Of a stretch of 52,896 nucleotides of DNA, positions 3,304-51,076 are shown one piece after another (the first letter of the stretch is position 1; every line of letters starts with the position of its first letter). The DNA comes from Folioceros fuciformis (lineage: Eukaryota). The position numbers and the translations under genes were made by a program. The DNA is taken from contig JBNGIO010005683.1 of the NCBI GenBank assembly GCA_049999805.1, positions 41,285 through 94,180 of the forward strand. Reading direction: 5' to 3'. Under the pieces are notes generated by a model, which saw only the letters and a program-made list of their open reading frames with translations, did no database searches and was not told the origin of the DNA.

Positions 3304-6123
3304 TTATCGTCTCTTCCCGAATCTGCCAGACGGACCCAGACTTTGCCTCAGGTCTGCATTCACGGCGTCCAGCAGCGCGTACAGCTGAGCCTTCTGCTCA
3401 TGCCTCCGGTCTCCGACCAGGAAGGTGTGCACCTCACAGTTGTGCTCGATCCAACTCTGGCCAGGCTCCTTCCATGCGACTCTTGTCCGCCTCACTTCAT
3501 CGACCTCGTTTGCATAATCGAGCAAACCGGCATCGGCGTACAGGTTAGACATGAGCACGTACGCGGCACCGTGCAGAGGCTCTAGGTTCACAGCTTGGTC
3601 GAAGGCACGTTCCGCCAGCACCACGTTACGATGCTTCCGGCACGCGCCAAGAACGCACAACCACACCGGCAGATCAGGCTCCATAGGCATTCCCGCCAGT
3701 AGCACTTCTATTTTCCGAAACAGTCCTGCACGGCCGACAAGATCGATCACGCAAGCGTAGTGCTCTAACCCTGCCGACAGGCCGTAGTCGCGCCCCATGC
3801 TCTCAAAGTACTCCAGTCCCTTTTCCACATCACCGGCGTTCGTGCACGCTGATAGGAGCATTAGGAATGTGACAGCGTCTGGTTCCAAACCTGTTCGGCA
3901 CATGGCCTGGTAACACAGCGCGCTGGCCTCGGCATCTCCGACTCGGGCATGCCCGGCAATCAGGGCAGTATATGATTTAACATTTGGCCGGGACAACGAG
4001 TTGAACACCTGCTGTGCGTCCGACATACTTCCGCATTTGCCGTACGCGCGGATGAGACTGGTCGCGATGCAGAGATTAGAGTGGAGTCCACATTCCAGTA
4101 CACTCTGGTGGACACCTCGACACATTTCCAAGGCTCCCGTATTGCTGCATGCTTCCAGCACAGCTACGAACGTACCTTCCCGTGGTTTCACTCCTCCTGC
4201 TCGCATCCGGGCGTAGAGTTGTAGAGCCTTGTCACCTTGCTCGTGCTGCGAGTATGCTGCAATCATGGCATTCCAAGACACCACGTCTCGCTGGGACAAT
4301 CCGTCAAACACATTTGTTGCATCTTTGATGCTCCCGCATTTGGCGTACATGCTGACTAAACTGTTGGCAACATGTGTGTCTGACTCCAACCCTAACTCAG
4401 TGGCTCGAGCGTGGATTTCCCTTCCCTTCTGCAGGGACTCCAGCTTCACGTTCTGCCCATCCATAACAGCACATTGCTCTCTTTCTGCAAGACTGCCGCA
4501 TGCTTGAAGAGTGCTTGCAAACGTTCTTGCATTTGGCCTGAATCCTGCCTCTTGCATTCGTGCATACATCTGTAAGGCCTTTTCCGCTAGTTCCCGCTGG
4601 GAATATGCTGCAATCATGGCACTCCAACACACCACATTACGATTGGACAATCTTTGGAACACCTGTTCTGCATCCTCGATGCTCCCACACTTCGCATAAA
4701 CACCGACCAAACTGCTGCCAACAAAAACATTCAACTCCAATCCCCTGTCTCTTACTGCAGCATGTAATTTCTTTGCCATGCGTAGGGACTCAAACTTAAA
4801 ATGCTTCCCCTCCGCCCGCTTGGCTACCTCGCTTTCGGCTAGGCTGCTACATGCTTGCAGGGCACAGACAAAAGTCCGGGCATCTGGCACGACATCTTGC
4901 TCTTGCATCTGTTCAAATATTTGCAGGGCCTTGGCTCCCTGGTCCTGCTGGAAATGTGCTGCCATCATGGCATTCCATGAAACCATATTGGGATTGTATA
5001 GACCATCGAAGATGACTTGGGCATCCTTAAGGCTCCCACATTTGGCATACATGCTCACCAAAGCATTGCCTACAAAGCTGTTTGATTCCAAACCGCTCTG
5101 GACAGCGGCGGCATGGACTATCCTGCCTTTCTGGAGAGCATGCATCTTAACCCTTTGCCCTTCCTCAACTGTCCCTTCCTCCCTTTCCGCGAGACTGCCA
5201 CAAGCTTGGAGCACGCAGACAAAGGTCCGTGAATCTGGTTTGAACCCTTCGTTTTGCATTCGCCAAAAAATCTGTAAAGCATTATCTCCTTGGTCCTTTT
5301 GAGCGTACGCAGCAACCATGGCTGTCCACGACACCACATTCCGCTGAGACATTCCATCAAACACATGTTGTGCATCCATCATGCTACCACACTTTGCATA
5401 CATACTGATCAAGGTGCTGGCAACGAACATGTCTGATTCCAACCCACGACATACAATTGCAGCGTGAATGCGCTTGCCCTCTTCCAAGTCCTCCAACTTG
5501 CTGCATGCTTTAAGCACGCTGACAAATGTATAACTGTCCGGCCAGACACCTTCCTGTTGCATCTGCTTATAGCATAGGACAGCCTCCCTACAGTGCCCTG
5601 CATTGATATACCCCGAGATGACGGCTGTCCAAGAGAAAACAGTTCGCCGGGGCAGCCGTTCAAACAACTCAAGCCCCTCAGCGAGGCTGCCACAGTTCAG
5701 CAGCGTGGTGACAACCAGGTCGAGGAGCATTATGTTGGACTCCAACCCATGCTTTGCCAAATGGGCATGTACCAGCTTGGCCTCTTGAAGGGAATTCTTC
5801 TTCGTGCAGGCCTGCAACAGATTCTTGTACATCTGCACGGAAGGCGCGAGTCCCCGCTGATCCATGCAGAGCAGCACGCCCAGTCCTTTGTCCAGACATC
5901 CTTGCGTGCCCACCGTTTCCAGTTCATGAACGTCCTCTGATGTGCATGCAGTCCTGCAAAGGGTGCAAGCCGACGCACTGCTCGGTCTATGAGAGTCCGA
6001 GACAAGTATCCGCCTCTTGGTATAGCAATATCGAGAAGGAGAGGACTTTTCCACTATGCTGCAAAGGATGCCTGACTGCCTTATGCTGCCTACAGTGGAG
6101 GCTGCCTTTCCACGGTGGTGCAT
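3304..6123 (-). CDS. PLS-class pentatricopeptide repeat protein with E domains and E+/PG-box tail, no DYW deaminase (organellar RNA-editing specificity factor)
   Basis: Intronless 939-aa ORF with repeated P-L-S triplets (VVSWNAMIAAY..., TFVCVLQAC..., LVSMYAKCGS...AQ.VFD), E-type motifs (EHYACVIDLVGRAG, AYVLMSNLYADAG) and EPGQSWIE...HTFLVGD. The ORF stops before any HxE/CxxC/DYW. Confidence 0.95.
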   Translation of the reverse strand: MHHRGKAASTVGSIRQSGILCSIVEKSSPSRYCYTKRRILVSDSHRPSSASACTLCRTACTSEDVHELETVGTQGCLDKGLGVLLCMDQRGLAPSVQMYKNLLQACTKKNSLQEAKLVHAHLAKHGLESNIMLLDLVVTTLLNCGSLAEGLELFERLPRRTVFSWTAVISGYINAGHCREAVLCYKQMQQEGVWPDSYTFVSVLKACSKLEDLEEGKRIHAAIVCRGLESDMFVASTLISMYAKCGSMMDAQHVFDGMSQRNVVSWTAMVAAYAQKDQGDNALQIFWRMQNEGFKPDSRTFVCVLQACGSLAEREEGTVEEGQRVKMHALQKGRIVHAAAVQSGLESNSFVGNALVSMYAKCGSLKDAQVIFDGLYNPNMVSWNAMMAAHFQQDQGAKALQIFEQMQEQDVVPDARTFVCALQACSSLAESEVAKRAEGKHFKFESLRMAKKLHAAVRDRGLELNVFVGSSLVGVYAKCGSIEDAEQVFQRLSNRNVVCWSAMIAAYSQRELAEKALQMYARMQEAGFRPNARTFASTLQACGSLAEREQCAVMDGQNVKLESLQKGREIHARATELGLESDTHVANSLVSMYAKCGSIKDATNVFDGLSQRDVVSWNAMIAAYSQHEQGDKALQLYARMRAGGVKPREGTFVAVLEACSNTGALEMCRGVHQSVLECGLHSNLCIATSLIRAYGKCGSMSDAQQVFNSLSRPNVKSYTALIAGHARVGDAEASALCYQAMCRTGLEPDAVTFLMLLSACTNAGDVEKGLEYFESMGRDYGLSAGLEHYACVIDLVGRAGLFRKIEVLLAGMPMEPDLPVWLCVLGACRKHRNVVLAERAFDQAVNLEPLHGAAYVLMSNLYADAGLLDYANEVDEVRRTRVAWKEPGQSWIEHNCEVHTFLVGDRRHEQKAQLYALLDAVNADLRQSLGPSGRFGKRR

Positions 6124-6530
6124 CCTGCATAACTGCCTGGAAATCCACCCAAGCAGGTCTGTATAGGTTGCTCACCAGCAGTGCGTCCTTCGACATTCAC
6201 TGCCCCGAAGTCAACAGACCGAGGTCCTTTCTCAGGCGGGATGAGCACCACCTAAGCTAGCTTCCCAACAACAGGACGACGTCAGGCGATAGAACCCCTA
6301 CCTAAGGGGTTTAGGATTCCGTGATCACTTGGCACCTCCATCAGGACCATTAGGGCTGCCCAGTCTTGGAGAACGAGATCAGGCAACACGTTCTTGGCGC
6401 CAAATGAGCAACACGCCCAGCAGTTCGAGTGCAAACCATCTCCATAATTTTCCCACTGCAAAAATCTAAAAATCCGGGACGGTGCAGGATTTCACTAGTT
6501 CAGAAGTGCTTTGTGTTTCATCTTTGAAAG

Positions 6531-6655
6531 TTAGCTAGTCCATAGCCTCAAGGGCCAAGAAGAGTTACTCCATAGCCTCAAGGGCGAAGAAGAGTTAGTC
6601 CATAGCCTCAAGGGCGAAGAAGAGTTAGTCCATAGCCTCAAGGGCCAAGAAGAAC
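6531..6655. repeat. 30-bp minisatellite, ~4 copies
   Basis: catagcctcaaggg(c/g)..aagaagagtta(g/c)tc at 6541, 6571, 6601, 6631. Only one diverged unit at the paralogous site (~11150). Confidence 0.9.
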
Positions 6656-6825
6656 CGTCGACAGTGGGTGGTTGGACTCCGTCAAGCAGGCAGCGAGGTG
6701 CTACTTGTCTAGCTGTTAGGCATCTAGTACAGGCATCCTGAAGGACCCGTGGCGCATGCACAATGAGTCCTGGGAACTGAAAAATTGCTACATGACAAAT
6801 TCGATGTATTTTGTTTTGCAGCCCA

Positions 6826-8844
6826 TCACCAGTGCTTAAAAAAGTCCATGACCACGGAATTCGCAAATTCTCGCATGGTGATAGGTAATTTGTCGACTTT
6901 TCTCCAACAGCTTGGCTTCTCGTTCAGCAAATAATGGCTGACCAAGGGATGCAACGAGTAGTAGTACACCTGCAAATCACCAAACGCCTCGACAGTGGGG
7001 TTACTTACAATCGCATATATGTATAGCACAGGACCACTAACACGACATTCAGGTATACTTGATCCAAAGCAGTAGAGGTTTGCGTGCTTTACTTACTCTG
7101 GTTCCTTCTGCATCTTGACCTGCCGTAACAAGGTTGAAATCAACAAGAGTGTCCATGGCAATCTGGGTCAACTTAGCACTGGGATGTACTAGTTTCCATG
7201 CGTCTTCTATCACATCTTTAGGAATAGCCTGCCCAGCTTCGAATAGTCCTAGGAACTCCAGCAATTGACGGTCACCTGCATTGAGTGCCTTAACAGAGAA
7301 ATCCAGTTCAGATCCCAGTACGAGGGCTTGTTCTTTCCAGATGCCAAGGCTATTACCGTTTGAACTCTGCACAATTTCGCCCATAATCTTTTCAGTCAAG
7401 CCATTTCCAATTCTGTAGACAAGCGCCAGGCAACCACCACAGCCCCTCAAAATCCTGCCCTGCAAGACATCAGGAACCACAAGGACAAGGTCAAGTATTC
7501 AGACAAGACTTTCCACCAGCGGGTGATATTGGCATTCTACTAAGAAACGACTCAAAAAGGAGCGGTGTGTAGCAACATCCCAACCTTGATACCTGGACTT
7601 TCTTACGTACATCCATAAAGCCCACAGAAGCCACAAGTAGGTGCTCAAGTACGTTACCTGGACTTCCGTAGGCAGATCCTTAATGCCCCTAGAAGCAGCT
7701 ATAGCCACAAGTAAGTGCTCATCCAATTTTTTAGCCGCAATGTCCGATGCATCAACATGAAACACCTTCGCATCCGCCCACAATGCCTTTCGACGACTTG
7801 TGACCAGAATTTTGCCACCATGTCCACGAAATCGAAAGTGAAGTATGCTGTCCGGGTTCCAAACATTGTCTAACACGATGAGACAACTTTTCTTCATTGC
7901 TGCGTCCGTCAAAGCCTGCCTTACGTCTGTTTTGTCGGCCACACGCATCCTATCAGCTAATTCACTCAGCTTCTTGACTACATCGCTCTCTAAAGAAGAC
8001 CCTTCACTTACGTTCCTGTCAAACTTCAGGAAGTGAGCTCCACCGGGAAACCTGGAATCTGTGGAAACAAGTACCAAACCCTCCAGAAATCAAGACTGAA
8101 CAGAGCCAAAGCAGTCAGCCACAAAGCAAGGATCTGAAAGTGCAGGCTGCACCTATTTGAAAAAATTTTGCGATGTCAAGAGCCATCTCCGTCTTACCCA
8201 TCCCAAACAGACCTGACAGAATGACGACATCCTTGTCTCCTGTACGTAGATACTCTACCACGTCATGAAAGATAGATTCATGACGTCTGTAATGATGGTC
8301 GTTGACGAGCATACCGTCATCATATCGATCCAGCCGCAAGTTCCAATCGTCCCGGAACTCTTTCAAGCTTTGCGCAAGGTGACATCCACCCCGCAAATAG
8401 AAAATGCTCCGGAATGCCTTAGATCTGAAAAATTTCCACCGCGCCTCCTGCTCTAGTTTGATTTTCGTGTATTCAGCTTGGAATCCTGCTGACACGCAAT
8501 GGCGTTGGGATGTCCATACTCTAGGTGAATGCAAGACTATCCTCAATCTATTCAGGAGATTGAGAGTCTGGTTCGCCTCATTCGCCCGTTTGCCTCCACC
8601 ATGTATCGAACGTTCCAGATCCCCTTGAACGATCAAAAGAGGATCCCTCTCCATGCTGGAACGAGGATCGACGGCATGCACCAACGCTATTTAGAGAACA
8701 TAAGGACCCAACATCAAAAGCCACAAGACCTAGCACATGCCCTCAGTGGCCAACACCATAGCAAAGCAGCGCACGTTGCAGCTCTAAGTAGCGCTCCAGC
8801 AGGTAGAAATTCTCCATGAGCGCTCTACCCAGATTCCGGTACAT
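6826..8844 (-). CDS. NB-ARC (STAND NTPase) protein, RLS1/NB-ARM-like, with helical N-terminus and no C-terminal repeat domain; exons 8844-8775, 8686-8153, 8058-7658, 7459-7097, 6969-6826 (~500 aa; true start may be further upstream)
   Basis: P-loop SGLFGMGKT, kinase-2 CLIVLDNVW, RNBS-B KILVTSR, degenerate GLPL (CGGCLAL) and degenerate MHD (YSLHPLV). All four GT-AG introns join in phase with no internal stop. TGA at 6826-6828. Confidence 0.8.
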
Positions 8845-8986
8845 CTTGGCTCCAACTGGAACAACACAACCTGGAAACACGATTATAGAGGTCCGCAGAC
8901 ACTGCATACATCACACGAAGACTGGTTTCCCAATTCCCGCCGAAGAGAGGGCAACGAAATGACCCATGAGCCTAGAAGCTTCAGCC

Positions 8987-9288
8987 AGAGCAGACGTCGG
9001 TAAAGCCTCTTTACGCCAAAAGGCCTAGTGCTGTGTCTGACTCTTGTTTTTTATTCTAACTGCGTGGTTCTGCCCCTCCCCGCTGAAGGGGGTGGTACTG
9101 GCACACGGGAACCTTGAGCGTGTTACTGGCACACGGGAACCTTGAGCGTGTTACTGGCACACGGGAATTAGGCCTCCAAGTTCAAACTAAAAGGATCTAT
9201 TTGACAGTTTACTAAAGTATAAATTATCTTGAGGAATTAAAGAAAAAATAACTTTAAGCCTCTAGGTAAAACTTATTTGCCCAAGCCT
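8987..9288. mobile_element. ~300-bp insertion flanked by 9-bp direct repeat GCTTCAGCC, with an internal 28-bp tandem repeat
   Basis: GCTTCAGCC at 8978-8986 and 9289-9297. The paralogous site (~13340) has a single GCTTCGGCC and no insert. tactggcacacgggaaccttgagcgtgt x2.6 at 9096-9167. Confidence 0.65.
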
Positions 9289-9754
9289 GCTTCAGCCGCA
9301 CTACAACCGGATGCACTTCTCGACACCAGCACTGGCGCCGTCGCCCGTAAGCAATCAAAACTTCGCCATTCCGCGTTACGTACGTACGGTATCCTCCACC
9401 ACCAGGTAACGACGACGCAGACCTCTTGCTCACCACGTGCAGCAGGACATATGCGCAGTCCTGAACCTCAGGACGAGCGAGTACGCAGGCAGCAACCTAC
9501 TGTCCATAGAATCTGGCCACGTGGAGTAAGAACACCTTGATTATTACTTCTTCTAACGATGGCAACTGACGGGCACGGCGAAGGACTGGCGACAGGCTCT
9601 GACATGCAAGACGAACACTGAAGGATATACATATGTCCTGCTCATACGATCCAGTACCTACGTGATCAGCAAAACTAAGGGTTCCTGCAGGCACGTCATA
9701 CACTGTGTACCCTACTCCCTGTGAGCTGCCCGGCTATGTGTACCGGATTACTAT

Positions 9755-10773
9755 CGGTACACCATCTCCCAGTTTTGGTAGAGCAGGTGCTTCTTCCTCA
9801 GAGGAATTAAAAGTGCCTCATGTGATTCCTACAAAATACATATGAGATGGAATGGTGATGATATTCAGATATCCTTTCCCGGATGACAGTAAGGGCTCGA
9901 AGAGTTGCGTACAAGGTGTACCTCTAGCACGCGCGCCTACTCTTCCAAGGCACCAGCAGGTAGCAAGATTTCAATCATCCATGCTGCACGACCGAACCTG
10001 TGGTCACTCACTTTTAAAGTGCACGACATTATCACATTGCCTGCCTACTGATCTTCACTTCTAGCTCAAGGTTGCGCTCGTTTCCTCAGCGAGGGATCGC
10101 ATCGGAGCTTGACGTGCCTGTTCAGCCGCTAGAACCTTGCTCCTCAGCTCCTCCACTCGGGACTGTTAACTCCAACTGCAAAAGGCAGAAGCTCGTTATG
10201 AAAGATGAAAGACGTATGGCCAGCTTAAAGTTCGAAACCTCATCTTACTCACCCTCTTTCTGGAGCAATCGGGCAGTGGTAACACTGACCTCATCTTTCT
10301 CTTGCAACTTGCGAAGGCTTCCACGGGGTATAGCACGTCTCCTCGAGTCGTGCCCCGCTCTCATATCAGAAGCTTTACTGGACCTGTCTGCCCCACTCCG
10401 TACACTTAAAAGAGTGCCCTTCGGCCTTGCTGCAATCGATCGTCTTTCCTTGCTCCCAACTTGTGGATTCGACAGTTGTTGACTCGCTGATACCTCTCAT
10501 CTGTCACTCTGCATGCCAGTCAGGTCCCCAGCACCTGTGACAGCTGAGACATTGCCCGACTCTGCAAACCGAGACTCTCCACCCGCTCCACCCCACAGTC
10601 CTGTCCACGAGGTCGGCTTGATGCCAGGAACCAGACCTGACGGTTCCAGGTCTACGAAGGTCAGCAGGTTCTAACGTGGACTCGAGCTTTCTCAGTTCGC
10701 CCTGCCCTTCGTCCAAGTGCCCTTGAGCACCAAGAAATGCTCTACCACCTTAAAAATCTGACCTTGATGCTGG
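9755..10773 (-). pseudogene. 5'-truncated, decayed duplicate of the 3' exons of the membrane/coiled-coil gene at 13780-16100
   Basis: Homologous to 13780-14871 but lacks the 5' exons and carries deletions in the last two exons and a stop (TAA at 10750-10752). Confidence 0.8.
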
Positions 10774-13700
10774 CAACATCGAGAAGGAGATGACTTTTAC
10801 ACTGGGCTGCCAAGGACGTGTCACTGCCTTACACTGTCGACAGTGGAGGCTGCTTTCCCACGGTGGTGCATTCCTGAATAACTACCTGAACATCCAACCA
10901 AGCACGTCTGTATAGGTTGCTAACCAGCAGTACGTCCCTCGACATTCACTGCCCCGAAGGCAACCGACCGAAGTCCTTTCTCTGGCGGAATGAGCACCAC
11001 CCAGGCCAGCCTCCCAACAACAACACGACGTCAGCTAATAGAACCCCTACATAAGGGGTGTAGGAATTCCGTTTTCATTTAGCAGCTCCATCAGGGCCCT
11101 TAGGGTTGCCCAGTCTTGGAGAACGCAGTGCCTTGTATTCCATCTTCAAGAGTTAGTCCATAACTTCATTTGGGAGGGCCAGGACGAACCGTGACAGTCG
11201 GTGGTTGGACTCCGTCAAGCAGCCAGGCAGGTGGAACTTATAATCCTTTTGTCACGTAATACAGACGTCGTAAATGACCAGTGGCGGATCCACAACGACT
11301 CCTAATGAGAACTGACAACTTCGTTGTGTTTTCTTTTGCAGCTCATGACCAGTGCTCAAATAATTCCATAACTACGGAATTCGCATATTCTCGCAAGGTG
11401 ATAGGTAATTTGTCGACTTTTCTCCAACCGCGTGGCTTCTTGTTCAGCAAATAATGGCCGACGAAGGGATGCAACGAGTAGTACACCTGCAAATCACCAA
11501 ACGCCCCGACAGTAGGGTTACTTCCAATCGCACATATGTATAGCACAGGAACACTAACACGACATTCAAGTATACTTGACCCAAAGCAGTAGAGGTGTGC
11601 ATGCTTTACTTACTCTGGTTCCTTCTGCATCTTTATCTCCCGTGACAGAGTTGAAATCGTCGATAGTGTCCAGGGCAATCTGGGTCAACTCAGCACTGGG
11701 ATGTACTAATTTCCATGCGTCGTCTATCACATCTTTAGGAATAGCCTGCCCTGCTTTGAATAGCCTAAGAACTTCAGCAATTGACAGGCACCTGCATTGA
11801 GTGCCTTAACAGAGAAATCCAATTCCAATTCCAGTGCAGGGGTTCGTTCTTTCAGGATGCCAAGGCTATTATAGTTTGACCTCTGACCAATTTCGGCCAC
11901 AATCTTTTCAGTCAAGCGTTGTCCAATTCTGTAGACAAGAGCCAGGAAACCACCACAGTCCCTCAAAATCCTGTCCAGCAAGACATTAGCAGCCACAAGG
12001 ACAAGGTCAAGTATTCATACAATCCTTTCCACCAGCGGTTAATATTGGTATTCTACGAAGAAACGACTCAAAAAGGAGCGGTGTGTAGAAAACATCTCGA
12101 CCTTGTTACCTGGACTTCCTTNNNNNNNNNNNNNNNNNNNNNNNNNNNNNNNNNNNNNNNNNNNNNNNNNNNNNNNNNNNNNNNNNNNNNNNNNNNNNNN
12201 NNNNNNNNNNNNNNNNNNNNNCTGCGTCAGTCAAAGCCTGCCTTGCGTCTGTTTCGTTGCCCACATGCATGCTTTCAGTTAATCGCCTCAGCTGCTCATT
12301 TACCTCCCTCTCTAAAAAAGACCCTTCACTCACGTTCCTGTCAAACTTCAGAATGTGAGCTCCACCGGGAAACCTGGGATCTGTGGAAACAAGTTGCAAA
12401 ACCTCCAAAAATCAAGAGTGGACAGAACCAAAGCATTCAGCCACAAAGCACGGATCTGACATTGCAGGCTGTACCTAGGTGAAAAAGTTGAGAAGTTAAG
12501 AGCCATCTCCATCTTACCTATCCCAAACACACTGACAGAATCACAACATCCTTGTCTCCTGTACGTAGGTACTCTACCACATCGTTAGAGATGGATTCAT
12601 GACGTCTGTAATGAAGCTTGTTGACGAACTCCTTGTCATCACATCGATCCAGCCGCGAGTCCCAATTTCACGGAACTCTTTCAAGCTGTGCACGTCATCA
12701 CATCCTCCCCGCAAAGAGAGAAGCAAGCTCTGCAGGGATGCCGCAGATCCTAAAATTCGAAAATTTGGCTAGACGCTTTGTGCTCTAGAGGACTGATTTT
12801 CATGTACAGAGCTCGGAATCCAGCTGTCACGCGGAGGCGTTGCGATGCCGATACTCTAGGTGGAACCAAGTGCCTGCCCAATCTATCCACGAGTTCGAGC
12901 GTCTGCTTCGCCTCTGTAGCCATTTTGCTTACGTGGTGTGCCCAACGTTCCAGCTCCCTCCTCACGAGGGAAGCTGGTTCGACATCTCCGTCTTCATTCA
13001 TCATAATCATGTTAGGGATTAGGCAAACCTTACAGGCAGGAAGTTCATGATTCATCCTTCAGAACCGAGTACCGAACCCACAAGACCTAGCACATCCCCT
13101 CAGCGGAAAAAACCAAAGCAAAGCGGCGCACGTTGTGGCTCTTAGTAGCACTCCAGTAGGTAGAAATTCTACTGAAGCGCTCTACCCAAAGTCCTGTACT
13201 TCTTGGCTCCAACTGAACCCGTGCCCTCTGAAAACAAGACTGTGTAAGTCCTCAGACACTCCAGACATCACACACAAACAGCTTCTCCAGCTCCCGCCCA
13301 AGCGACCTTCAGAGAACGGAAGGACCCGTGAGTTACAAGGCTTCGGCCGCACTGCAACCAGATACATTTTCCGACTCGCGCCGTAGGCAGGCAAAACATC
13401 GCCACTTCGCGGTACATAATAGCACTTCCCTGCTACGACACACTTCGCTGACTTGCTGCGTAAAGACGAGACAAACCTTCGCCCACCACGTGCGGTACGC
13501 GCAGTACGAACGAGCGAGTGTGAATTAAGAAACCTACATAAAATCGGGCCAAGCGGAACAAGAAAACCTCTTGTCACAAGCTTTACCGATAGGCAGACGA
13601 CGGGCTCGGCGAAGGACTGGCCACAGGCTCTAACACGCAAGACGAACACTGAACAATCTGTCTACTGCTAATATGATACACTGCTTAGGTGTTTTGCAAA

Positions 13701-14871
13701 AATAAGGGTTCCTACAGACACGTAATATAATGTGGACATGCTACCTGTGAGGCACCACGCGATGCTCCGCGTACTACTATTAGTACACCATCTCCCGAAC
13801 ACTGTCGTCACCAGCGGAGTCCCAGTTTTGGTAGAGCAAGGCAGCGGCGGCGCGTGCTGCCACAGAAGAACTGTACTTTTTCCTCAGAGAAGTTAAAAGT
13901 GCCTCATGTGATTCCTACAAAATACACATAAGGAATGATAATATTCAGAAATCCTTTCCCGGATGACAGTAAGGGCTCGAAGAATTGCGCACAAGGTGTA
14001 CCTTTAGCACGCGCACCTCCTCTTCCAAGGCAGCAGCACATTCTTTCTGCACAGGATGGCAAGATTTCATTCACCCATGCTGCACAACCGAACCTATTCT
14101 CACTCACATCTGAAGAGCACGACGTAATCACATTACCTGCCTACTGATCTTCACTTCTAGCTCAAGGCTGCGCCTCTTTTCCTCAGCTAGGGATCGCATC
14201 GCAGCTTGACGTGTCTGTTCAGCCGCTAGAACCTTGCTCCTCAGCTCCTCCACTCGGGACTTCAACTCCAACTGTCAAAGACAGAAAGTTGTTGTGTAAG
14301 ATGAAAGACGCATGGCCAGCTTAAAGTTCGAAACCTCATCTTCGTCATCCGCTGTCTGGAGAAAGCGGGCAGTGGTAACACGGACCTCATCTTTCTCTTG
14401 CCACTTGCGAAGGCTTCCACGGGGTACAGAACGTCTCTTCGAGTCGTGCCCCTCTCTCATATCAGAAGCTTTACTGGACCTGTCTGCCCCACTCCGTCCA
14501 CTTAAAAGAGAGCCCTCGGGCCTTGCTGCAATCGATCGTCTTTCCTTGCTCCCAACTTGTGGATTCCACAGCTGTTGACTCGCCGATACCTCTAATCTGT
14601 CAGTCTGCATGCTAGGCAGGTCCCCAGCACCTGTGACAGCTGAGCCATTGCCCGACTCTGCAAACAGAGACTCGCCACCTGCTCCACCCCATACACTCCT
14701 GTCCACAAGGTCTGCTTGATGCCAGGAACCAGACCTAACTGCTCGAGGTCTAAGAAGGTCATCAGCTTCTGCCGTGGACTCGGGCTTTCTTAGTTCACCA
14801 TATCCTTCGTCCAAGTGCCCTTGAGCACCGAAAGATGCTCTCCCACCCGAAAAATCTGACCTTGGTGCTGG
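10773..14871. repeat. Tandem segmental duplication, copy 2 (contains N-gap 12122-12221)
   Basis: Colinear homology to 6025-10773 with many substitutions and indels. Ends at ...aaaatctgaccttggtgctgg (14871). Confidence 0.9.
11343..13215 (-). pseudogene. Pseudogenised duplicate of the NB-ARC gene
   Basis: Same exon layout as 6826-8844 but with in-frame stops in the first exon (RALQ*NFYLLECY*), an indel at the P-loop with GKT changed to GKM (~12510-12535), and a frameshift near 11765. Partly in an N-gap. Confidence 0.8.
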
Positions 14872-16100
14872 TTCCTGATAAGTGACCCTGAACCCCAAGT
14901 CCTTCTCACCTAATCTCCGCCTCATGCGCTCCCTAAAGTCTCCATGACGTTGAGCACGAATGACTCTTCTCTTCACTGACTGGCCAACGGTGATCCCAAC
15001 CATTGAGTATCCTAGATTGAAGAGGCCAACCAGAAGGATGCAACCAACGGCAAAAAGCCCCAACTTTCCAAGCAAAGTATCAGACTGGAATGAAAAAGCT
15101 CCTAGTGAAGCCACTCCTGCCACAAAAGAGTTGCAAAATGTCAGCCTGTAACGCCATGGGCCAAGAACCAAACTAAGGACATCCGTGAACAGATTCTCTG
15201 GCAGCTGGTTGACCTGAAATCTTCAGCTTGGGAGCCTCCAAGCAGTCCAGCTCCGTTGTGGCACCGTGACCTTCTGCAGACCTGTCCGTTTTCTGAGTAA
15301 ACAAGGTGAAATGATAGTTTTGAGAAGCTTTGCCATTTTGCTTGAAGGAGAGACACTTCGTCAATCCAAACCAGCTCCTTTCCTTTGAGACAGAGGAGTT
15401 CGAAGATGTCCGGGACTGGAGATTGAGATTATCGAACACAAGGAGAGCCAATTAATAAGGAGATGAAAGACACGTACTTGCCACCACCGATCGGGCAAAG
15501 CGGATGCAGCAAGGGTACAAGCGAAGGCAAAGAGGCCAAGGACGGTGCATTCGGGCGAGGCGGACGAGAGAAGCAAAGCTGCAAACAGCCCTCCCTGCAG
15601 GCACACGACACAGACCAAAGTTGATCCCACTTGGCCTGCTTCCAACCTTTTCGCATCACACGTACAGCTGGGAGCAACGAAAGCACCTGCTTGACGCGAT
15701 CATCCGCCGGATTGAAGACTGAGGCTGCAGCAAGGACGCAGCGAGCTGGTGAACTCAGCCGGAGACACCGAGGCACTGGCTGCACCTGGAGAATGTTCCG
15801 TCCTCCGCTCCAACCGAGCCGCTTGTTCCTTTCAAGCCTCCCGCCATCGCCGCAGGCGCAGATCATAACCAGCATTCTGCTACTCTCCACGCCATCCCCG
15901 TCCCCGTGGATGCTTCCACGACAGCAGCCCGAGCCCGCGCCGGAGCTCCATCCAGCCCGGGAACGCGACCAGCCGTTGCCTAGCACGATAACAGACAGAT
16001 CCTTGCATGCCGTTCCAGCAGCTGAGGGTCCCAGGCGCCCGACCTGCACCATGGAGGACGGGGTATCCAGGAAAACACAGCTTGGAGCCGCAGCGTGCAT
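13780..16100 (-). CDS. Uncharacterised, probably plastid-targeted membrane protein with C-terminal coiled coil; exons 16100-15687, 15594-15478, 15292-15282, 15145-14386, 14271-14137, 14046-14002, 13914-13780
   Basis: Phase-consistent GT-AG splicing. Ser/Arg/Gly-rich N-terminus, ~4 hydrophobic helices (GGLFAALLL..., LGLFAVGCILLVGLF), heptad region LELKSRVEELRSKVLAAEQTRQAAMRSLAEEKRRSLELEVKISRQKECAAALEEEVRVLK. TAA at 13780-13782. Confidence 0.7.
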
Positions 16101-19950: not shown

Positions 19951-22585
19951 TGTGGAGTCCACATGACGAATGGATCCCCTAGAAAAATGATAGTATTTTT
20001 TTTGAGTTTTTTATTGAATTCCTTGGGAAAATAGTTAGGAAATTGGGCTAGGTAGGTCGATCAGGAGCTAGGTAGTGGTTGTGTTCGAAAGGTGAACAGC
20101 CGATCCGCTAACGTATGGAAAGAGCGAACCTATGGAAAGAGCCAAGTAGCGGGCGGGGTTTTTTTTGGGGTCAGGGATATTGAGGAGCCTGGAACCCTAG
20201 GGCAGGGCGACGTGAGAAGGTGAGGGATGTTTTGGGGAATTCTGGGCCTTGGGAGGCAAGCTGTTGAATGCCTCGTGTTCATCAGCCTCTTGGCAAAGAA
20301 GTAGGCGGAGCATAGGAGTCCTCCTTGTATCTTGAAATGAGATTGAACGGGGGCAAGCAGTCCGGCAAGCAGGCGGTTGCGCAGGCCAGGGACCCGACAG
20401 GCAGTGGGGCTGGCGGCCGGCTGCAACTAGAGGTAGGGTTCAAGCTAGATGCCTGGGACTCAGCAAGGAGCAAGGGACAGGCACGCGGCCTGGCCGAAGG
20501 CGAGTGGGGGATCTTGGTCAGCGGCTTAGCCAACTAGCTGCAAGAGGATCCAAGCGGCTGAGTGGATCTGGCCAGACAGGCCAGGAGTAGCTCATGGCGG
20601 GACCATGGGAGCCAAGTCGGGGCGGATCGGTGGCTAGACAACCAGCAGACAGGTGCACAGCCGGTCCTCAAGCGACCTGGCCGGATTAGCAGATCGGCGG
20701 GATTCGGGGTGGTGGGCAGGATCTGGTCGGATCTGGGGCCGACATTGCCCGGGCTCTAGCTGGCGGATCTGGCCAGGGGCGGATCCGGGAGGCGAGCTTG
20801 GACAGGTTGCCAAGCGAGGTGGTGTGGTTGTCCGATCCCAACCAGCTGGAGGCCAGGCAACTCGGGGCAGACCGGAGGCTGGCTGGATTGCGGGATGGAT
20901 CCAGTTAGGCGGGTCAGTCGTGGCTAATGGCCGGGCAGGCTGGCTGGGCGGTGGGTACGCTGGCTGGGCAGCGGCTGTCAGGTGGGCTGGTCGGCAGGCT
21001 GGCCAGTAAGGCGGTCGGTAGGCTGGNNNNNNNNNNAGGTGGGCTGGTCGGCAGGCTGGCCAGTAAGGCGGTCGGTAGGCTGGTTGGGCCGCGGCCAAGC
21101 AGCAGGCAGGGCGGGCCAACCCGTTGGCTCGGGTTGGCTGGATGGTTGCCTTGCCCAGGCAGCAGCCGGGTGGTGGACCCAGCAAGCAGGGCGGTGCAGG
21201 ATCCAGGTAGCCATGGCCGGCTGGCCTGGATCACATGTGATAGGCGGCTGGCTAGTGGGCTTCAAACGACCGGGGCCGGATCCGGAAGCTAGGCAGCGGC
21301 CTGGCTGCAGGATCCCAAGTAGCGGCTGGCTAGGTGGGATCCTAGCAGGCGGGCCTCAACGGATTGCCAGGCAGGCCGCTAGTCGGCGATGGGCTGGCTG
21401 GGCAGGCGGCTTGGCTGGTCAGTGGGCAAGCCGGCTGATGGTGAAGGGAAAGCCAGGAGCACGCCAGAGGCTGGCAGAATCCAGGACAAGACCGGCGGGG
21501 TCAAGCTGGAAGACGGATCCAGCCAGGCGGGTTGGCGGATCCAAGTGTTGGCAGGATCACGGCTAGCAGACCAGTCAGACGCTACTCTTGCGACTTTGGC
21601 CGAATCGTGGGCTGGATCGAGGCTGAACAGCAGCCGGGTCGCATCAAGGAAGGCGGGCTGGCCGGATTGGCAAGGGCCAGGCACCGGATTCGGCTAGCCA
21701 GGTAGGATGGTCGGGTTGGGTGGTGGGCTGGAAACTGATCAGCATGGCCAGAGCTGGCACCTTCTCAGGATTCGAGGTTGGATTGCGGCTAGATAGCTCT
21801 GGGCTCTGGACGACGGCTGGTAGGCAGGGGCTAGATCCAAGCGGCTAGTAGGTTGGCGTTTCTCAACGAGCTGAGCAAAGCAGGGGGCTATTGGGGGAAG
21901 GTTCATGAGAAACAACAATGCTTTTGTGGGACTCGGAACAGTCAACCTGGGCAGCTCCGAATGCATTCGTGAGCCATACATTACTACCCCTGCAACTGGA
22001 TGTGTGCTGGCCACTAACCACGAGTCGCCTTTTATCGATGGGCTAGTGTCGGGGTGGAGGAATCCGAGCACGGCGCTCAGCGAACAGCTGTATGCACTGG
22101 AATGCAACTTAGCATTACGACAGGTTGAGGAACTTGCGGAGTAAGTCGGTGGACAGTAAGGTCCATTTGGGGAATTCTCGCCTTTGAATGTTGCTGCATT
22201 AATGCCGCTTTGGGAGAAGTCGCACATTATTTGCAACAACATGAGCATTACCTTGGTGAACGTGGCGTGGGGATTGCTGAAGATGTGGTAGGGTGGTTCT
22301 ACTACCATGAACCGGCTGCCCCAGCCAGGGCGGGACAGCTCTAGTAGACCACGGGAGCTCCATGGCCAGCAAGATGGAGGTGGGAGGATTTGTGGGGGCC
22401 TCAAGGAAGGTACAAGATGATTTGAGGGAGGTTTGAGGGAGGTGTGGGAAGTGGTGGAGATGCATACAGGATGATGCATACAGGATGAGGGAGGTGTGGG
22501 ATTTGAGGGAGGTGTGGGAAGTGGTGGAGATGCATTCATGGTTTTGGTAGGAGGTGACATTAAGTAACCTTTCATAGGGCGAAAT

Positions 22586-23515: not shown

Positions 23516-23735
23516 GTATGGAGTCTGACCTAACCGCTGTAGCCACAGTTAAGGTTAGGTAGGTACTAACAGGTAGGATCATGTCAGTATGTTAGGGAAG
23601 AATAAGTAGACTGCCTTGACTTGGGATCACTCTTTNNNNNNNNNNNNNNNNNNNNNNNNNNNNNNNNNNNNNNNNNNNNNNNNNNNNNNNNNNNNNNNNN
23701 NNNNNNNNNNNNNNNNNNNNNNNNNNNNNNNNNNN

Positions 23736-26312
23736 CTGCAATGTTATATTCTTCCTCTCAGCAAAGGAGTTTTATGCTGGAGTGTAGGGCAAAGTGAATT
23801 GATGATGAATCTCTTCATCTTCGCAAAAATCTTGGAAAGCTAAGTTGGTATACTCACCATCGTTATTTGTACGGAGAATCTTCACACAGGCACCAATCTG
23901 CCTTTGTACATGCCTCACAAAAGATTGGAAGCACTCAAGGGCTTCACTCTTGTTCTTGAGAAAATATACTGTGCAATATTGGCTCCACTTGTCTACAAAT
24001 GTGATAAAATATGGTGCACCTCCAAAAGAAGCCGTCGATATGGTGCAGTAGATGTCATTGTGAATTGTTTCAAGGACTGCCTTTGCACAGGTAAGGTGCT
24101 TGTCCCAGTAAGGCAAGGAATGTGCCTTGCTCATTGCACATGAGTCACAGAAAGGGCTGAACTTTGGGATGAAGTTGATGGTATCTCTAAAACTACCACT
24201 ATGAGCTAGAGACGACAACTTCTAAAAATTAACATGGCCAAGGCGATAGCACCAAAGATGTATGGTGAGTTTCATCTAGAGAGCATGGTAGATGGAATGG
24301 TAGGAGGCTCCAAAGTTAAGACATCAAGCATGTACAAGTCATTATATGGGTGGCCAGAAAACAACTTGTGATTGGAGTTGGGGCTAAATATATGACAACT
24401 TGTGTGGTCAAAGCAGACTTGACACAAGTGTTCTTGTGTGAGTTTGTAAACAAACATGAGGTTCATCATAGCCGAGACATAACGTACTCTTGATAGGGTG
24501 AGACTCCTATGCCCAAGTAGTTGTATCATGACATAACTTCTGCCCTTTATTGATAAACCATTATCATCACCTGACAACACAAACTGCTTATCATTCTTAG
24601 AGGGAACAAAAGATGAGAAGGCACGCCTGTCTAAACATATGTGACTTGTAGCACCTGAATCTATAAACCACTTATCTTGTTGGACAGTGACATAATTCAC
24701 ACAATAACAACTATTGAAGGCAACTTGGCTCTGCCCATAGCTACATTAGACCCTGGAAGAGCTGAGTTCACCATTGCTCTTCTTTTTGTAGACACTCTTA
24801 TAATGCCCTGGTATTGTACACCAGTTGCATGTAAAAGGTTTCTTCTGCAAGTTGGGCAGCCTTGATGAAGGTGGATTGAATGAGCCTCTTCCACAACCTC
24901 GTCCATGATATCCTCCATGCCCACGTGAGGCATACAACACTCGATTGCTGTTGTTGATTGTAGAGCCTCTATTCTTATGAAGAGTCCTTGACCTTTCTTC
25001 CGCTAAGAGTGCTCCAAGGACTTCCTCCAAGATAACATTAGGTGTGGTCCCAGCTGTTGCTACTTGAACTGCTGCTCGAATAGTTGCATTTTGTGAACTC
25101 ACCAACTGTCAGTAGATGTTTGGCAGAGAAGCAAGAAGGTTTACAGCAACCTGAACTTCTGTTAAAACAATGCCACCGCAAGCCAAGTTAGCCCTCAAGG
25201 TTCTAAACTTGTGTATACAGCCCTCGACGGGCTCAAAGTCCTTCATCCACAAGATAAAAAATTCACAGTATGCATGCACCATCGATGCTAAGCTTTTGTT
25301 TTCATAAATGAGTTTGAAAGCCTTCCACACAACATTAGAGGTGGTTGCACCTATTGTATGAGGCATCATAGTTCTATTCAGGGAGGCAATAAGTATTGAT
25401 CGAGCCCTCCTATCCTTTTGCTGACAAGGTAGGAAATTTTCTAGCGGGGATGCAAGACAAGCATCAAAGCCGTCTACAATGCCCATCAACTCATTCTCAT
25501 CAAAGATCTGCGTTAGCCTCATGAACCAGATAGCATAATCGATCCCATCAAACTTGTCTTTGTCCCTGAACTCTATTTTGAGAGGAACGATGCAAGGAGT
25601 TTGCTGTGAGGATAGGGGCAAGAGTGCTACCTGACATATTTGCTAAGACAGTGTTACTCACCAACTTGAACTGCGACCTATGCTCAAGAAGCAACCTAGG
25701 CTGCATTGCTTGAGGAGAGAAATCAAAAGGTGAGTAATCCACAAACTCGATGTCAAAATCATGAAAAAGAAAAGGCAAATTAGTAGTTGTCCTCCTCAGT
25801 TTGCATACGACATGGATTTTGAGAATATTGAAGAACAATGCCCATACATTGAGACTTGTTTATCAAGATTCAAAGCAGAAAGATGATCTTGACAAATCTC
25901 ATGAAGAATCTGGATAGATTCAGAAAGGCAATCAATCAACTCCTTTTGAGTGTGAAGGAGTTACAAATTGGTGATAGGGAGGTGGACCAAAGATTTGGTG
26001 GTGACGCTGGTTGAAGATAGTGTTCTTTGTGTTCTCGTAAAGGGGCTAGCAACAGGTTGAATCTCAAACGGTTGTGTGCTCATAGAACAATTAGCTCTTA
26101 GGCCATGGCGCTGAACAATGGAAGGCGATGTTGGGCATGTTGTGAATCTTTCCTCCTCTCTGCATTGGGGGCAAAGCAGGCCGGAAACTTATAAGTGTGC
26201 AAGCTTATCGGCACTTAGGGCACACTTATCATCGGCCTTTGTGTAACGCTTTGGCATCTTGAAGATTGGTTGGTTGATCGCTCATATATAGAGAATCATG
26301 GGTTTGATACCA
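23736..26312 (-). mobile_element. Ty1/copia gag-protease-GAG-pre-integrase-integrase core, degenerate (element A, 5' piece) with PBS-like site
   Basis: gag (KFDGIDYAIW, LLASLP, LLAEE), CCHC-like CNWCTIPGH, protease WFIDSGATSHI, integrase IHNDI...YFITFVD...LRTNNDGEY...PYTP. TGGTATCA (tRNA-iMet-like PBS) on minus at 26312-26305. Many stops and frameshifts. Confidence 0.9.
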
Positions 26313-30963: not shown

Positions 30964-32366
30964 TCAAATATCTGAGGTTAAAGAAGAGGAGATGCAGGAA
31001 CCAGTATCATTGCTACCGTCGTCCCTGGTCTCCCGACGATCGTCGCGGAAATCTGCCCTGACGTAGGCAAGGAGGCTCTTGTTGAGGGGCTGCCGCGATT
31101 TGAACAAGGCGAGGTACTCTGCGTAGGTGAAGGGCCTGTAAACGGGAGGGTGGTTTGAGTCGAGCAGCTGGGGCAAGGGCGCTACGGTGGCGTCCTTGCG
31201 GGGGGAGTAGAACAAGGCCATAGACAGCCTGGGCGTGTCGGGATGCACCTGCGCTCGATGCATCACGCTGGGATACACGTCATTGCTCACAGCCTGCAAC
31301 CCAGCAGCACCAAATTGAACACACGCACGTCCACCGGAATTAATTGACAGGCATTTTGCTGTTAGGACGTCGCTAAGCGAGAGACGGTAGTCACCTGGAG
31401 AATGTCCCCAACATTGACGACGAAGGCCCCAGGATGCGGCTTCACGAAAACCCAACGCCCGTCCTTGAGGATCTCAAGCCCACCCACGTCGTCCTGATGG
31501 AGCACGGTGAGCACGGATGGGTCGGAATGCGGCACAACGCCGATGCTCTTGGATGGCTCCGGGCAGTTGGGGTAGAAATTGAGACGGTGCGTGGTGAAAC
31601 TGTCTGCGCCGCCACAGTAGCGCGTGATGCAATCCTGCTCTAGCCCGGGCCCAAGGGCCTCCGTCAGCAGCTCCACCATCTGCTTCGCCACGTTCTCCAC
31701 CGCCATCACGTACTCCCCCAGCCCGGCACTGTGTTCCAGGCAACAATCGCTCAGCAAGAGCATTGCCAAGTCCTGGGATGAATTTTTACGAGGGAATCAC
31801 ATCGCACGACGCGCTTGCAGCGAGATATGTACGTACCTGAATTCCTGGGCTTGAGCCGGGTCGGGCCAGATTCTATCGGAGTAGTGCTGGATGATCCCGG
31901 GGTCGTTGAAGACGGTGAAGTTCTGCTGCCACAGGAAGAGGTTGCAGGCGCTCCTGCGCAGGACGGGACCACGCGGCAGGGGCTCGGGGACGCCCCCGAC
32001 CCGGTATCCCACGGAGGATCCATCCGACGGGCCTGGGCAGCACCCCGCCAGCTTCCGCTCGAAGGGCAGCGCGAACAGGGATCGCGCTAGGCCCTGCACG
32101 TGCTCTACGAGCTCCAACGACACGCCGTGGTTCACGATCTGGAAGAAGCCCCATTCACGAGCCGCCTGCCCCACCTCCCGCGCCAGCCTCGCCCTGCAGG
32201 CTGCGCCCCCGTCCGCCAGAACAGACAGGTCGAAGAGCGGCACATCCTGCTCCGGCTGCTGCGGTTCCTCTTTCGCATCGATTTCCTTCAGAATCGCCGG
32301 GGGAGGCGGCCACAGGAAGGCCGGCGCCAGCCCGTCCATGGCGCCCGGCATCGCCACCGTCGCCAT
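30964..32366 (-). CDS. 2-oxoglutarate/Fe(II)-dependent dioxygenase (DOXC type, GA-oxidase-like); exons 32366-31837, 31728-31395, 31293-30964
   Basis: DIOX_N (VPLFDLS, AAREWGFFQIVNHGV), RLNFYPNCP, HSD...H facial triad (PHSDP, VMHRA) and RLS 2OG-binding motif. Two phase-consistent GT-AG introns. Confidence 0.92.
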
Positions 32367-33753
32367 GACGACTCGCCCCGAACTACCAGCTCAAATGACC
32401 CCCAGTGCCCCGCATTGCGGAAGACGGAATCTCCATGCCATCCGCTGACACGCACGGATCTCTTGCCCAGTCCGCGGCTTCCCAGACCTTCAGGAGACGA
32501 GACGGCGTTATCTATCTACATGTACCGCGCGTAAGATTTGTACCAATTACAGTAAGATTGACGGAGTCGCGATTTGTGATTGTTTCACGACCCGCGTTTT
32601 CCGTCCTGGCGTTGCCTTTGCTTTGCTTTGCTTTGTTCCGGCTTCTTCTTCCCCCGCGGCCGACTTTGGCTTCACAGAGCCGCGTTGGCCGCTGTGGCGG
32701 CTCCTGGGTCACAGGATTTCGATAACGATTCTTTCCCGCTTCTTTTAGGGCCGTGCGGGGCCCCCGGGTCTCGGTTGAGTTCTGTTGCACGTCACTCTTT
32801 CGCTTTTGGAAAACCGGGCCGGGACCAGCCCGGATGCCTGGACGCCAGAGCAGTCCCTGCTCGCCGGCCAATGGCGCTCCCGCTGGCAGGTTTGCATGAA
32901 ATATCTGCAATCGGGGCCGGGGCGATATTTTGGTGTGCGGTGCGGCAGCTCTTTTGGTCGGATTCGACATTGTAATCGGGGCTGATGAAGCTCCTAATGC
33001 AGATTCTAAACAGGATCTGAGCACGGGGATGAGCACACAACGACATCGGGCCCGCCTCCGGCACGACCAACCTCTGACTACCTTCCCCGTAGTCCATGCG
33101 CATGGCCTCCGCACCGGGTTAGCACTGCAAGCGCGGAATTGTGAGTCACGCTCCAGTTGGTTGGTTGCACCTGGCACTTCAGCACAGGGTGGGGAGCGGG
33201 AGCTGCGGCCCGGCGAAGGAAGCGTCACGCTGTCACCACGCCTGGCGCAACTGCCTCATTGACGCAGATTGCCTCTTTCGGAAGGTGCATCCAGAAGGTG
33301 AAGTTGACGGTGAAGGCGAGGATGAACCCTGGTCGTTTCGTGTGTTGCGCAAAAATTTCGTGTCCCCTCCCAAAAGGCTCCGGGGTCGGAGAATTCACGC
33401 TAATGGTGCGCCTTGGGTTTCAGCGTGCGCGGCTTCCCGAGCACTCAGACGGTCTGTGATTTTTGCAGGAGGGGATCAGTTCAAGTGGGAGGAGAGGAGC
33501 CGGGAAGAGTGAATCCTCAATTTTTTTCCTTATCCACTCCTTGAGAAGATGATACCGAGAGGACAATCCTTACCGCCGCACAGAAACGGCCATCGTTGCG
33601 GTCGCTTCGTCTCCCCTGGCTCCTTGTTGTGACGGTGAGGAGCAGGAAGCTAGACGATTGGGGGAAGGGGAGGCGTGCGCGTGGGCGTGGGCGTCGGGCG
33701 AGGCTCGGAGGTTCGGTTTTACTGCCTACCAGCCTAGCTTGAAGCTTCTGGCT

Positions 33754-40836: not shown

Positions 40837-40846
40837 NNNNNNNNNN

Positions 40847-47900: not shown

Positions 47901-48119
47901 TGAAGAATCACGCGACTTTTCTCTGCTGAACATCACGGGTGCGGGTGGGGAAGGTAGTACACAATCAAAGCTGGATGTTGCTAAGGATCCCTCAGGGGTT
48001 TTCTTGCAGGGCGCTTCCTCCCCGTTCCTGGAGGCGAGGCGGGAGCGGGTTGGAGTCTGTCATGAAGCTTGTGGCAGGCTTTGCGAGAGTAGCCAAGGTG
48101 CCGCAGGTTTGGATGTTTC

Positions 48120-49965: not shown

Positions 49966-51076
49966 CGGGGCTTGAGCCGGGGGCCAGGGCCAGGCTCTTG
50001 CAGAGGCAGGAAGTGAGGGCGTGGGGAAGGTTTCTGTCTCGAAGTCCCAAGGGCAAAGGCGACTCGGCTCCTCGGTGTTGGATTCAACATTCGTCAGTGA
50101 TTTGGCGCTGGTCTCACAATCACCGGAACAACGGTGGGAACCTGGCTCCGCTGGAGAGCTGGATCCGGCCATGAGATCGGTTCTAGCTTCCCAACCGAGC
50201 TAATGGAGCCAGTGTCTGGTTGGCTACCAGCCAGATCAAAAAACGCGGAGGCTTTTGTGGGGAAAAGGACCAGGACCTCGGAAGATCCATTAGCAAGGTG
50301 TAAGCGGCAGGATCAGATTGCTGTGGCCAAAGCAAGGAAAGCCCTGAACAATGTGGTTCAGCGGATGGCCATGGACATAACGTCCCCGGAAGGAAAAAAG
50401 GTCAAAGTGGTGGAAGAGCAGAGGGGTGGATACCGGATGCAAAGGAAGGGCTCTAGCGGTGAGATGATGGCTCCCTTGGTAGGGGGTGGGAATCGCAGTA
50501 CTGAGGAGAGAAAGAGCGCCAGGGAGGTAGAAAATGGTTCAGTCAGTCTGACAAAAGAGTTGTCTGATGGCAGAAGCCCCATCATGCGTGAGAACACAGT
50601 TTATGCTTCTGAGAACGACCTGTTCTCAACTCCATGCGCAGACGATGATGAAGAGGGTGAACCTGTCTGGCATGAGGTCCAGGCTGTTTTTTCAGGGGAT
50701 GAAGGATGTGTTTCTCCAAGTCGCTCATGGGAGAAGAGCCGGGATCAGGATATGAAGGTGAAACAAGGGTGCTACGCGTATGGGCAGGAGAATCCTAGAG
50801 TGACGAGTGGGCAGGGAAGTAGGACGCCAGAAAATGTAACTAAGCGGAAAGGCAAACCTTGCTCGGTTCACCTTACGGTGACTGAGGAAGATTCAGGACA
50901 CTTACTCGTACTTGGTTAAGTTAGGAGACGAGGGAGAGCTGCTTCCTATCCTCATTCCAGTGCAGCACCTTCACTTAGGGCAGGAAAGGATTTTTGCAGC
51001 ATTGTCATCCGGAGGTGTTCTTGCGAACAAGGAAGGCAAGGAGGTGGAGTTCTTCAGTGGGGGTATATTAGACGGG

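Follow-up and report, generated by a model that had tools for sequence, protein, structure and literature searches.

Can a plant gene of NB-ARC type that lacks a C-terminal repeat sensor be a maintained molecular switch, or is it a relic whose reading frame has happened to survive? This question is raised by a gene on the minus strand (8844-6826) of a 52,896-nt stretch of Folioceros fuciformis DNA (assembly GCA_049999805.1, contig JBNGIO010005683.1, positions 41,285 to 94,180; the whole stretch is referred to as the window), which adjoins a decayed tandem copy of itself (i.e. the twin). The locus is best explained as lineage-restricted and fast-evolving, with an orphan N-terminus of ~165 aa joined to an AP-ATPase module and no C-terminal repeat sensor. 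Our leading interpretation, held at about even confidence, is that the intact member of the tandem pair is a weakly constrained, truncated switch gene of NB-ARC type and of ordinary birth-and-death origin. A first-pass annotation had described five phase-consistent exons encoding ~500 aa, and the model was rebuilt with the same coordinates as five exons (88+534+401+363+144 = 1530 nt) and four GT..AG introns of consistent phases, giving a product of 509 aa followed by TGA at 6828-6826. No in-frame stops were present in the coding frame of the spliced sequence, whereas the two alternative frames contain 28 and 32; none of 2000 shuffles of the spliced frame was free of stops. Codon position 1 is G-rich in the 509-codon frame, as in the adjoining pentatricopeptide repeat (PPR) gene. 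Chance is excluded as the source of the open frame. An in-frame upstream ATG at 8907 could lengthen the N-terminus by 21 residues.

The order and spacing of the motifs in the translation match the usual NB-ARC series P-loop, kinase 2, RNBS-B, GLPL and MHD. The P-loop GLFGMGKT (residues 188-195) opens the domain and fits the Walker A pattern GxxxxGK[ST]. Kinase 2 (CLIVLDNVW, residues 266-274) keeps the first Asp and has Asn in place of the second acid (i.e. DN for DD), and GGKILVTSRR (residues 288-297) occupies the RNBS-B position. Motifs of exons 4-5 were assigned by eye because no profile matched these exons: the GLPL position reads CGGCLAL (residues 348-354) and the MHD position reads LHP (residues 468-470), with His kept and Asp lost, and neither canonical form is present. 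The C-terminal W509 lies 39 residues past LHP. The replacement of GLPL by GCLA and of MHD by LHP, with a stop ~40 aa later, had been noted previously and is read in the same way here.

Profile, PDB, PADLOC and word-index scores refer throughout to single exons and not to the joined 509-aa protein. The Pfam NB-ARC profile (PF00931) matched exon 3 with an E-value of 5.4e-5 over profile positions 64-140, and the last 33 residues of exon 2 with 11.6 bits over positions 7-40. The unmatched gap at the join of these exons comprises 23 residues, equal to the 23 profile positions (i.e. 41-63) that separate the two matches, and therefore provides independent support for the exon 2-exon 3 join. The AP-ATPase part of the NCBIfam model FxSxx_TPR matched exon 3 (E 1.6e-8, 33.5 bits, positions 65-151) and, colinearly, the end of exon 2 (positions 16-49), a match that spans only profile positions 16-151 of 830. 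FxSxx systems include AP-ATPase+TPR proteins according to a passage of PMC7159879, and the FxSxx_TPR model also labels potato nucleotide-binding leucine-rich repeat proteins (NLRs) in the relevant part of PMC13765792. As the model labels ordinary potato NLRs, the match marks the AP-ATPase/NB-ARC class and not a bacterial or tetratricopeptide repeat (TPR) lineage. A bacterial origin, considered from the FxSxx_TPR match, was rejected because the model labels plant NLRs too and because the gene has spliceosomal introns. The previous assignment to the NB-ARC-type (AP-ATPase) NTPases of the STAND class is supported by the Pfam and NCBIfam matches of exons 2-3.

Transcription was assessed with the three of eight sequencing runs that cover the stretch, namely X1 and X2 (DNA) and X3 (RNA-like). 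No run is on record as RNA; X3 bears that label only as a guess, and we took it to be RNA-derived since GT..AG joints (minus strand) occur in no other run. The other runs (X4-X8, with two other organisms of the X3 study among them) share next to no words with the stretch, which is no evidence of absence. Joints in X3 lie exactly at introns 3 and 4, with depths of 102.5 and 101.3, and are absent from X1 and X2; the binned depths of X3 (37.9 and 71.0) fit zero cover within introns 3 and 4. The main gene is transcribed, with two of its four introns (i.e. introns 3 and 4) seen spliced in this single RNA-like run.

Absence of a repeat sensor was examined both within the gene and past its stop. No Pfam repeat family (leucine-rich repeat, LRR; armadillo, ARM; or TPR) was found at E <= 1 in exons 4-5, and none in four minus-strand frames past the stop; the five frames scanned, including the exon 1 frame, gave one chance-level match (E 0.12). 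No TIR or TPR family was found by Pfam in any exon. The X3 contig 6616-6906 crosses the stop unspliced, leaving at least 210 nt of untranslated transcript after it, and a PPR gene on the same strand begins by ~6171, downstream of the NB-ARC-like gene. These observations uphold the view that the protein is sensor-less. The further statement that the twin ends at the same place was essentially right, the twin reading TGG TCA TGA as compared to TGG TGA in the main copy and thus stopping one codon later.

The twin lies in the second of two tandem units of ~4.75 kb, which were aligned by self-BLAST in five colinear blocks of 78-86% identity and which each carry a PPR 5' fragment, an NB-ARC-like gene and an unnamed upstream gene. 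All of the 7-10 disabling lesions of the pair (six frameshifts, one to three stops and a start loss) are in the twin, with none in the main copy. The twin start codon is changed (ATG>AAG), clear stops number at least three (aligned codons 11, 20 and 119), and the frameshifting indels are of +8, +14, -1, -1, -2 and -1; five frameshifts and a stop fall in exon 2. With 7 lesions, the probability that all would lie on one copy under equal neutral decay is 0.016, and with 10 it is 0.002. The twin is itself transcribed (X3 joints at 11484/11612 and 12380/12518). It splices out the homologue of intron 4, and a second spliced intron combines the homologue of the intron 2 acceptor with a GTAAGA donor that lies further upstream, within the P-loop codons. 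An assembly gap at 12122-12221 lies within the twin; contigs of X1, X2 and X3 reach 61 letters into it, of which 44 match the main copy at ~7797-7840.

Several results weigh against the interpretation of the main copy as a weakly constrained switch gene, and most of them also argue for its main rival, a serious competitor that we place clearly below even confidence. According to this rival, the gene is a transcribed relic en route to a pseudogene, with a frame still open by chance and an irrelevant protein, as a by-product of NLR-type birth and death. Over 415 codons, comparison of the main copy with the twin gave a ratio of non-synonymous to synonymous substitution rates (dN/dS; Nei-Gojobori) of 0.91, with values of 0.83 for exons 1-2, 1.08 for exons 3-5 and 0.92 for residues 1-165. 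A pairwise ratio of 0.6, which corresponds to an omega of 0.2 in the main copy and neutrality in the twin, was rejected (P = 0.0025); a ratio of 0.75 was not rejected. The two copies differ by 12.4% in exons 3-5 as compared to 10.1% in introns 2-4; exons are less diverged than non-coding DNA (25.7% versus 33.9%) in the older-looking 5' part alone. The first-pass annotation had named a neutral dN/dS and a lack of transcripts as refuting its reading: the ratio is near neutral and counts against it, while RNA-like joints are seen.

The remaining adverse points concern splicing, motifs and relatives. X3 shows introns 1 and 2 only in unspliced form, the sole contig of the 5' half (7797-9033; 1237 nt, depth 60.5) being colinear with the genome, and the donors of these introns (GTGTTG and GTGCAG) are the weakest of the four, introns 3 and 4 having GTAACG and GTAAGT. 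Retention of intron 1 ends the frame from ATG 8844 after 33 codons, retention of intron 2 leaves at most a 179-aa frame (from ATG 8654), and both introns must be removed for the long 509-codon frame. Motif degeneracy at the GLPL, MHD and Walker B positions is also what a decaying gene would show. Exon 3 alone, at 23.0 bits, falls just short of the Pfam cut-off of 23.5, and no match to exons 4-5 was found among Pfam, NCBIfam and PADLOC models or PDB sequences. With the 177 aa of exon 2 as query, phmmer found no matches at E <= 0.001 among 1.84 billion representative proteins. Word-index searches, which covered the class of longer proteins with exons 2, 3 and 4 as queries, returned 764, 419 and 330 candidates, respectively, of which none was significant (weak evidence, as the tool itself rates it). 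That the dead twin is likewise transcribed and spliced also favours the relic. Against the relic stand the confinement of all disabling lesions to the twin, their location mostly in exons 1-2, where divergence peaks (~26%), and a codon-position composition that is still coding-like. As all lesions lie in the twin, and in combination with the dN/dS of 0.91 and the exon and intron divergences, the data fit a main-copy frame that was held open for much of its history with barely constrained residues, i.e. a gene that is either fast-evolving or recently relaxed.

The retained introns also bear on the identity of the product. A short protein of ~179 aa from ATG 8654, consisting of the N-terminal region and the P-loop and ending in the retained intron 2, might be the product that matters, acting as an N-terminal domain on its own, with the downstream NB-ARC exons as an untranslated tail. 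This is what the only RNA contig of that region would encode, and the evidence for maintenance of the frame comes mainly from exon 2, in which the twin has five frameshifts and a stop. We consider this alternative unlikely, since the dN/dS of residues 1-165 is 0.92, an end directly after the P-loop is structurally senseless for an NTPase fold, and the 302 codons of exons 3-5 remain free of stops and keep the order of the NB-ARC motifs. Furthermore, contigs show the dominant form only, and a minority of spliced mRNA could escape them.

The N-terminal region and exons 4-5 were compared with domain, sequence and structure collections. For exon 2, no TIR, Rx_N, RPW8 or other N-terminal Pfam family was found at E <= 1, and the P-loop-level matches obtained (TsaE, NB-ARC and nSTAND3) were all under cut-off; the 55-aa frame of exon 1 had no Pfam match. 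PADLOC gave one weak P-loop match among four exons. Among PDB sequences, exon 3 had six matches at E <= 1, of which an AAA ATPase (E 0.04) ranked first and not one is named NB-ARC; exon 2 had a single chance-level match, not named as an NB-ARC protein, and exon 4 had none at E <= 10. A language-model search with exon 4 returned winged-helix leads of STAND proteins (WHD_MalT, WHD_NWD1 and DUF7779) with scores of 0.84-0.87, below the 0.9 line, and language-model atlas searches gave only sub-threshold or unnamed leads. AlphaFold2 models made without an alignment had confidence values (pLDDT) of 34.7 (exon 2) and 42.7 (exon 4), both too poor to use, and the helical N-terminus of the first-pass annotation is accordingly putative.

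These searches do not sustain the proposal that the gene is of the RLS1 (NB-ARM) type, i.e. a truncated member of the RLS1 (CC-NB-ARM, where CC is coiled-coil) lineage that has lost its ARM repeats. RLS1 is described in a part of PMC10030324 as a 1040-aa CC-NB-ARC-ARM protein whose GLPL and MHDV motifs are like those of R proteins, and CC-NB-ARMs are reported in a part of PMC12512272 to be conserved across plant genomes, ferns included. This distribution, together with a likeness of short segments proposed by the earlier reader, is what speaks for the proposal. No relatives were found among the 1.84 billion representatives for exon 2, the site of most of the look-alike segments, exons 2, 3 and 4 had no word-index matches (weak evidence), no ARM or other repeat is present, and the R-protein forms of GLPL and MHDV for which RLS1 is described are absent here. 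We regard membership of the RLS1 lineage as very improbable, and the gene is not demonstrably of the RLS1 type. Of the earlier interpretation as a whole, the NB-ARC-type and sensor-less character stood and the RLS1 kinship, the source of much of the gene's appeal, was not upheld. The passages of PMC11218826 that were consulted hold nothing on repeat-less or orphan-domain NB-ARC genes.

The gene was compared with known systems. The TIR-NBS proteins CHS1 and TN2 are cited in a part of PMC10030324 as LRR-less truncated plant NLRs; the present gene is like them in having an NB-ARC-type module without C-terminal repeats, in a duplicated cluster with a decayed paralogue adjoining, but differs in an N-terminus in which Pfam (E <= 1) recognises no family, TIR, Rx_N and RPW8 included, and in an NB-ARC that is detectable by profiles only, in exon 3 and the P-loop. 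Rice RLS1 is similarly an NB-ARC protein without LRRs, but has ARM repeats and 1040 aa as compared to no repeats and half that length here, shows no detectable similarity, and is described with R-protein-like GLPL and MHDV as compared to GCLA and LHP (PMC10030324, in part). AP-ATPase+TPR proteins (i.e. bacterial FxSxx-COOH and plant TIR-NB-TPR proteins) are alike in that the N-terminal AP-ATPase part of FxSxx_TPR gave exon 3 its best profile score (33.5 bits), but differ in that neither TIR nor TPR is present here. Canonical NLRs of the CNL, TNL and RNL classes differ by their LRRs and by their CC (Rx_N), TIR or RPW8 domains, none of which is recognisable here (Pfam, E <= 1). A natural sensor-less NB-ARC protein exists in animals: CED-4 has an N-terminal CARD that recruits an effector, carries no repeats and is restrained by a separate partner. 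CED-4 would be the nearest model for how such a repeat-less protein could work, whilst no sequence match to solved NB-ARC proteins was found here.

General knowledge of the family suggests that the spliced 509-aa product would be a nucleotide-dependent switch, in which nucleotide would be bound by Lys194 of the P-loop, Asp271 of Walker B, Arg296 and His469. Hydrolysis and the ADP-locked off state may be weakened by two substitutions, namely of the second Walker B acid by Asn and of the MHD Asp by Pro. Given that no sensor is built in, control would be expected from a partner protein or from dosage. Little full-length protein would be made unless the two weak-donor introns (1 and 2) are removed, because the mRNA that is seen carries upstream ATGs and keeps these frame-ending introns. 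A bolder possibility is a working sensor-less NB-ARC module for cell death or helper function, with an orphan N-terminal output domain, prone to activation through its weakened off-state motifs and held safe at the RNA level (by upstream ATGs and regulated removal of the two weak-donor introns) and not by a repeat domain; we judge this quite unlikely. If the full-length protein is made and active, an N-terminal domain without known relatives would join the NLR output domains, and plants would provide an instance of an NB-ARC switch that lacks repeats and is controlled by splicing. The present evidence is of ordinary NLR-type birth and death, with one intact-looking, weakly constrained copy beside a dead one.

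Table 1. Coordinates in the window of the NB-ARC-like gene, its transcript ends, the twin and the tandem units
Feature	Position	Strand	Remarks
5' leader, minimum	8845..9033	-	X3 contig 7797-9033; upstream ATGs at 8967, 8911 and 8907 (8907 in frame with 8844); open frame 8743-8910
Exon 1, predicted	8757..8844	-	29 codons + 1 nt; 83.0% identity to twin; RNA contig reads on into intron 1
Intron 1, predicted	8687..8756	-	70 nt; weak donor GTGTTG; only retained form seen
Exon 2	8153..8686	-	~165-aa N-terminal region without detectable relatives, then P-loop GLFGMGKT
Intron 2, predicted	8059..8152	-	94 nt; weak donor GTGCAG; only retained in main copy; homologous acceptor used in twin
Exon 3	7658..8058	-	Walker B/kinase 2 CLIVLDNVW and RNBS-B-like GGKILVTSRR; Pfam and NCBIfam matches
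Intron 3	7460..7657	-	198 nt; GTAACG..AG; RNA-confirmed by X3 joint 7458/7657 (cut +1)
Exon 4	7097..7459	-	GLPL-position CGGCLAL; presumed helical/winged-helix part
Intron 4	6970..7096	-	127 nt; GTAAGT..AG; RNA-confirmed by X3 joint 6967/7095 (cut +2)
Exon 5	6826..6969	-	MHD-position LHP, 39 further residues, TGA at 6828-6826
3' untranslated region, minimum	6616..6825	-	X3 contig 6616-6906, unspliced across stop; enters 30-bp x 3.9 tandem repeat 6536-6653 (TRF)
Twin, transcribed pseudogene	11349..13198	-	tblastn and blastn; most of exon 3 masked by 100-N gap (12122-12221)
Two tandem units of ~4.75 kb	6025..14871	.	6025-10772 and from 10773 on; self-BLAST, five colinear blocks

Other parts of the tandem units were also compared. 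The 5' end and upstream region of the PPR gene (6025-6375) recur at 10773-11125 with 85.6% identity, within the tandem duplication. The unnamed upstream gene is duplicated too (9406-10773 and 13460-15222, minus strand): its distal copy is still open over 315 aa (14275-15222), a frame to which Pfam assigns no family, and its proximal copy has short frames only, yet is transcribed and spliced (X3 joint 10175/10290). As the proximal copy of this gene is broken and the distal copy open, decay is reciprocal between the two units. The main copy has ~300 bp more than the twin at ~8950-9400, between the gene and its upstream neighbour, including a 28-bp x 2.7 tandem repeat at 9092-9167. At ~8950-9400 the DNA depth rises to 27-54 from ~8 in nearby sequence and contigs are interrupted, a pattern suggestive of a dispersed repeat having inserted into the 5' region. 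In X1 and X2, DNA contigs diverge from the window at 7990, 8037 and 8290, running on for 27-159 letters, and could represent another allele or a further paralogue.

In the wider neighbourhood, no Rfam matches were found anywhere in the window, and assembly gaps (runs of N) additional to that in the twin (12122-12221) occur at 21027-21036, 23636-23735 and 40837-40846. The PPR gene (3304-6171, minus strand) is intronless and encodes 955 aa that match PPR_2 (E 4.9e-88) and, for the E motif, E_motif (E 1.1e-08). Copia-type fragments with gag (Retrotran_gag_2), Pol_BBD and RVT_2 (E 7.7e-58) matches lie at 24272-25642 and 41508-42134 (minus strand). The E motif of the PPR gene and these fragments mark the region as nuclear DNA of a land plant, and no more narrowly as that of the non-seed plant named in the first-pass annotation. 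Two 2OG-Fe(II) dioxygenase genes (30964-32390 and 36710-38192, minus strand), each with DIOX_N and 2OG-FeII_Oxy pieces, are probably a tandem pair. An open frame of 715 aa on the plus strand (47869-50016), with no Pfam family, contains a direct repeat of ~910 bp (48117-49027 and 49044-49954) with 76.6% identity between its two copies.

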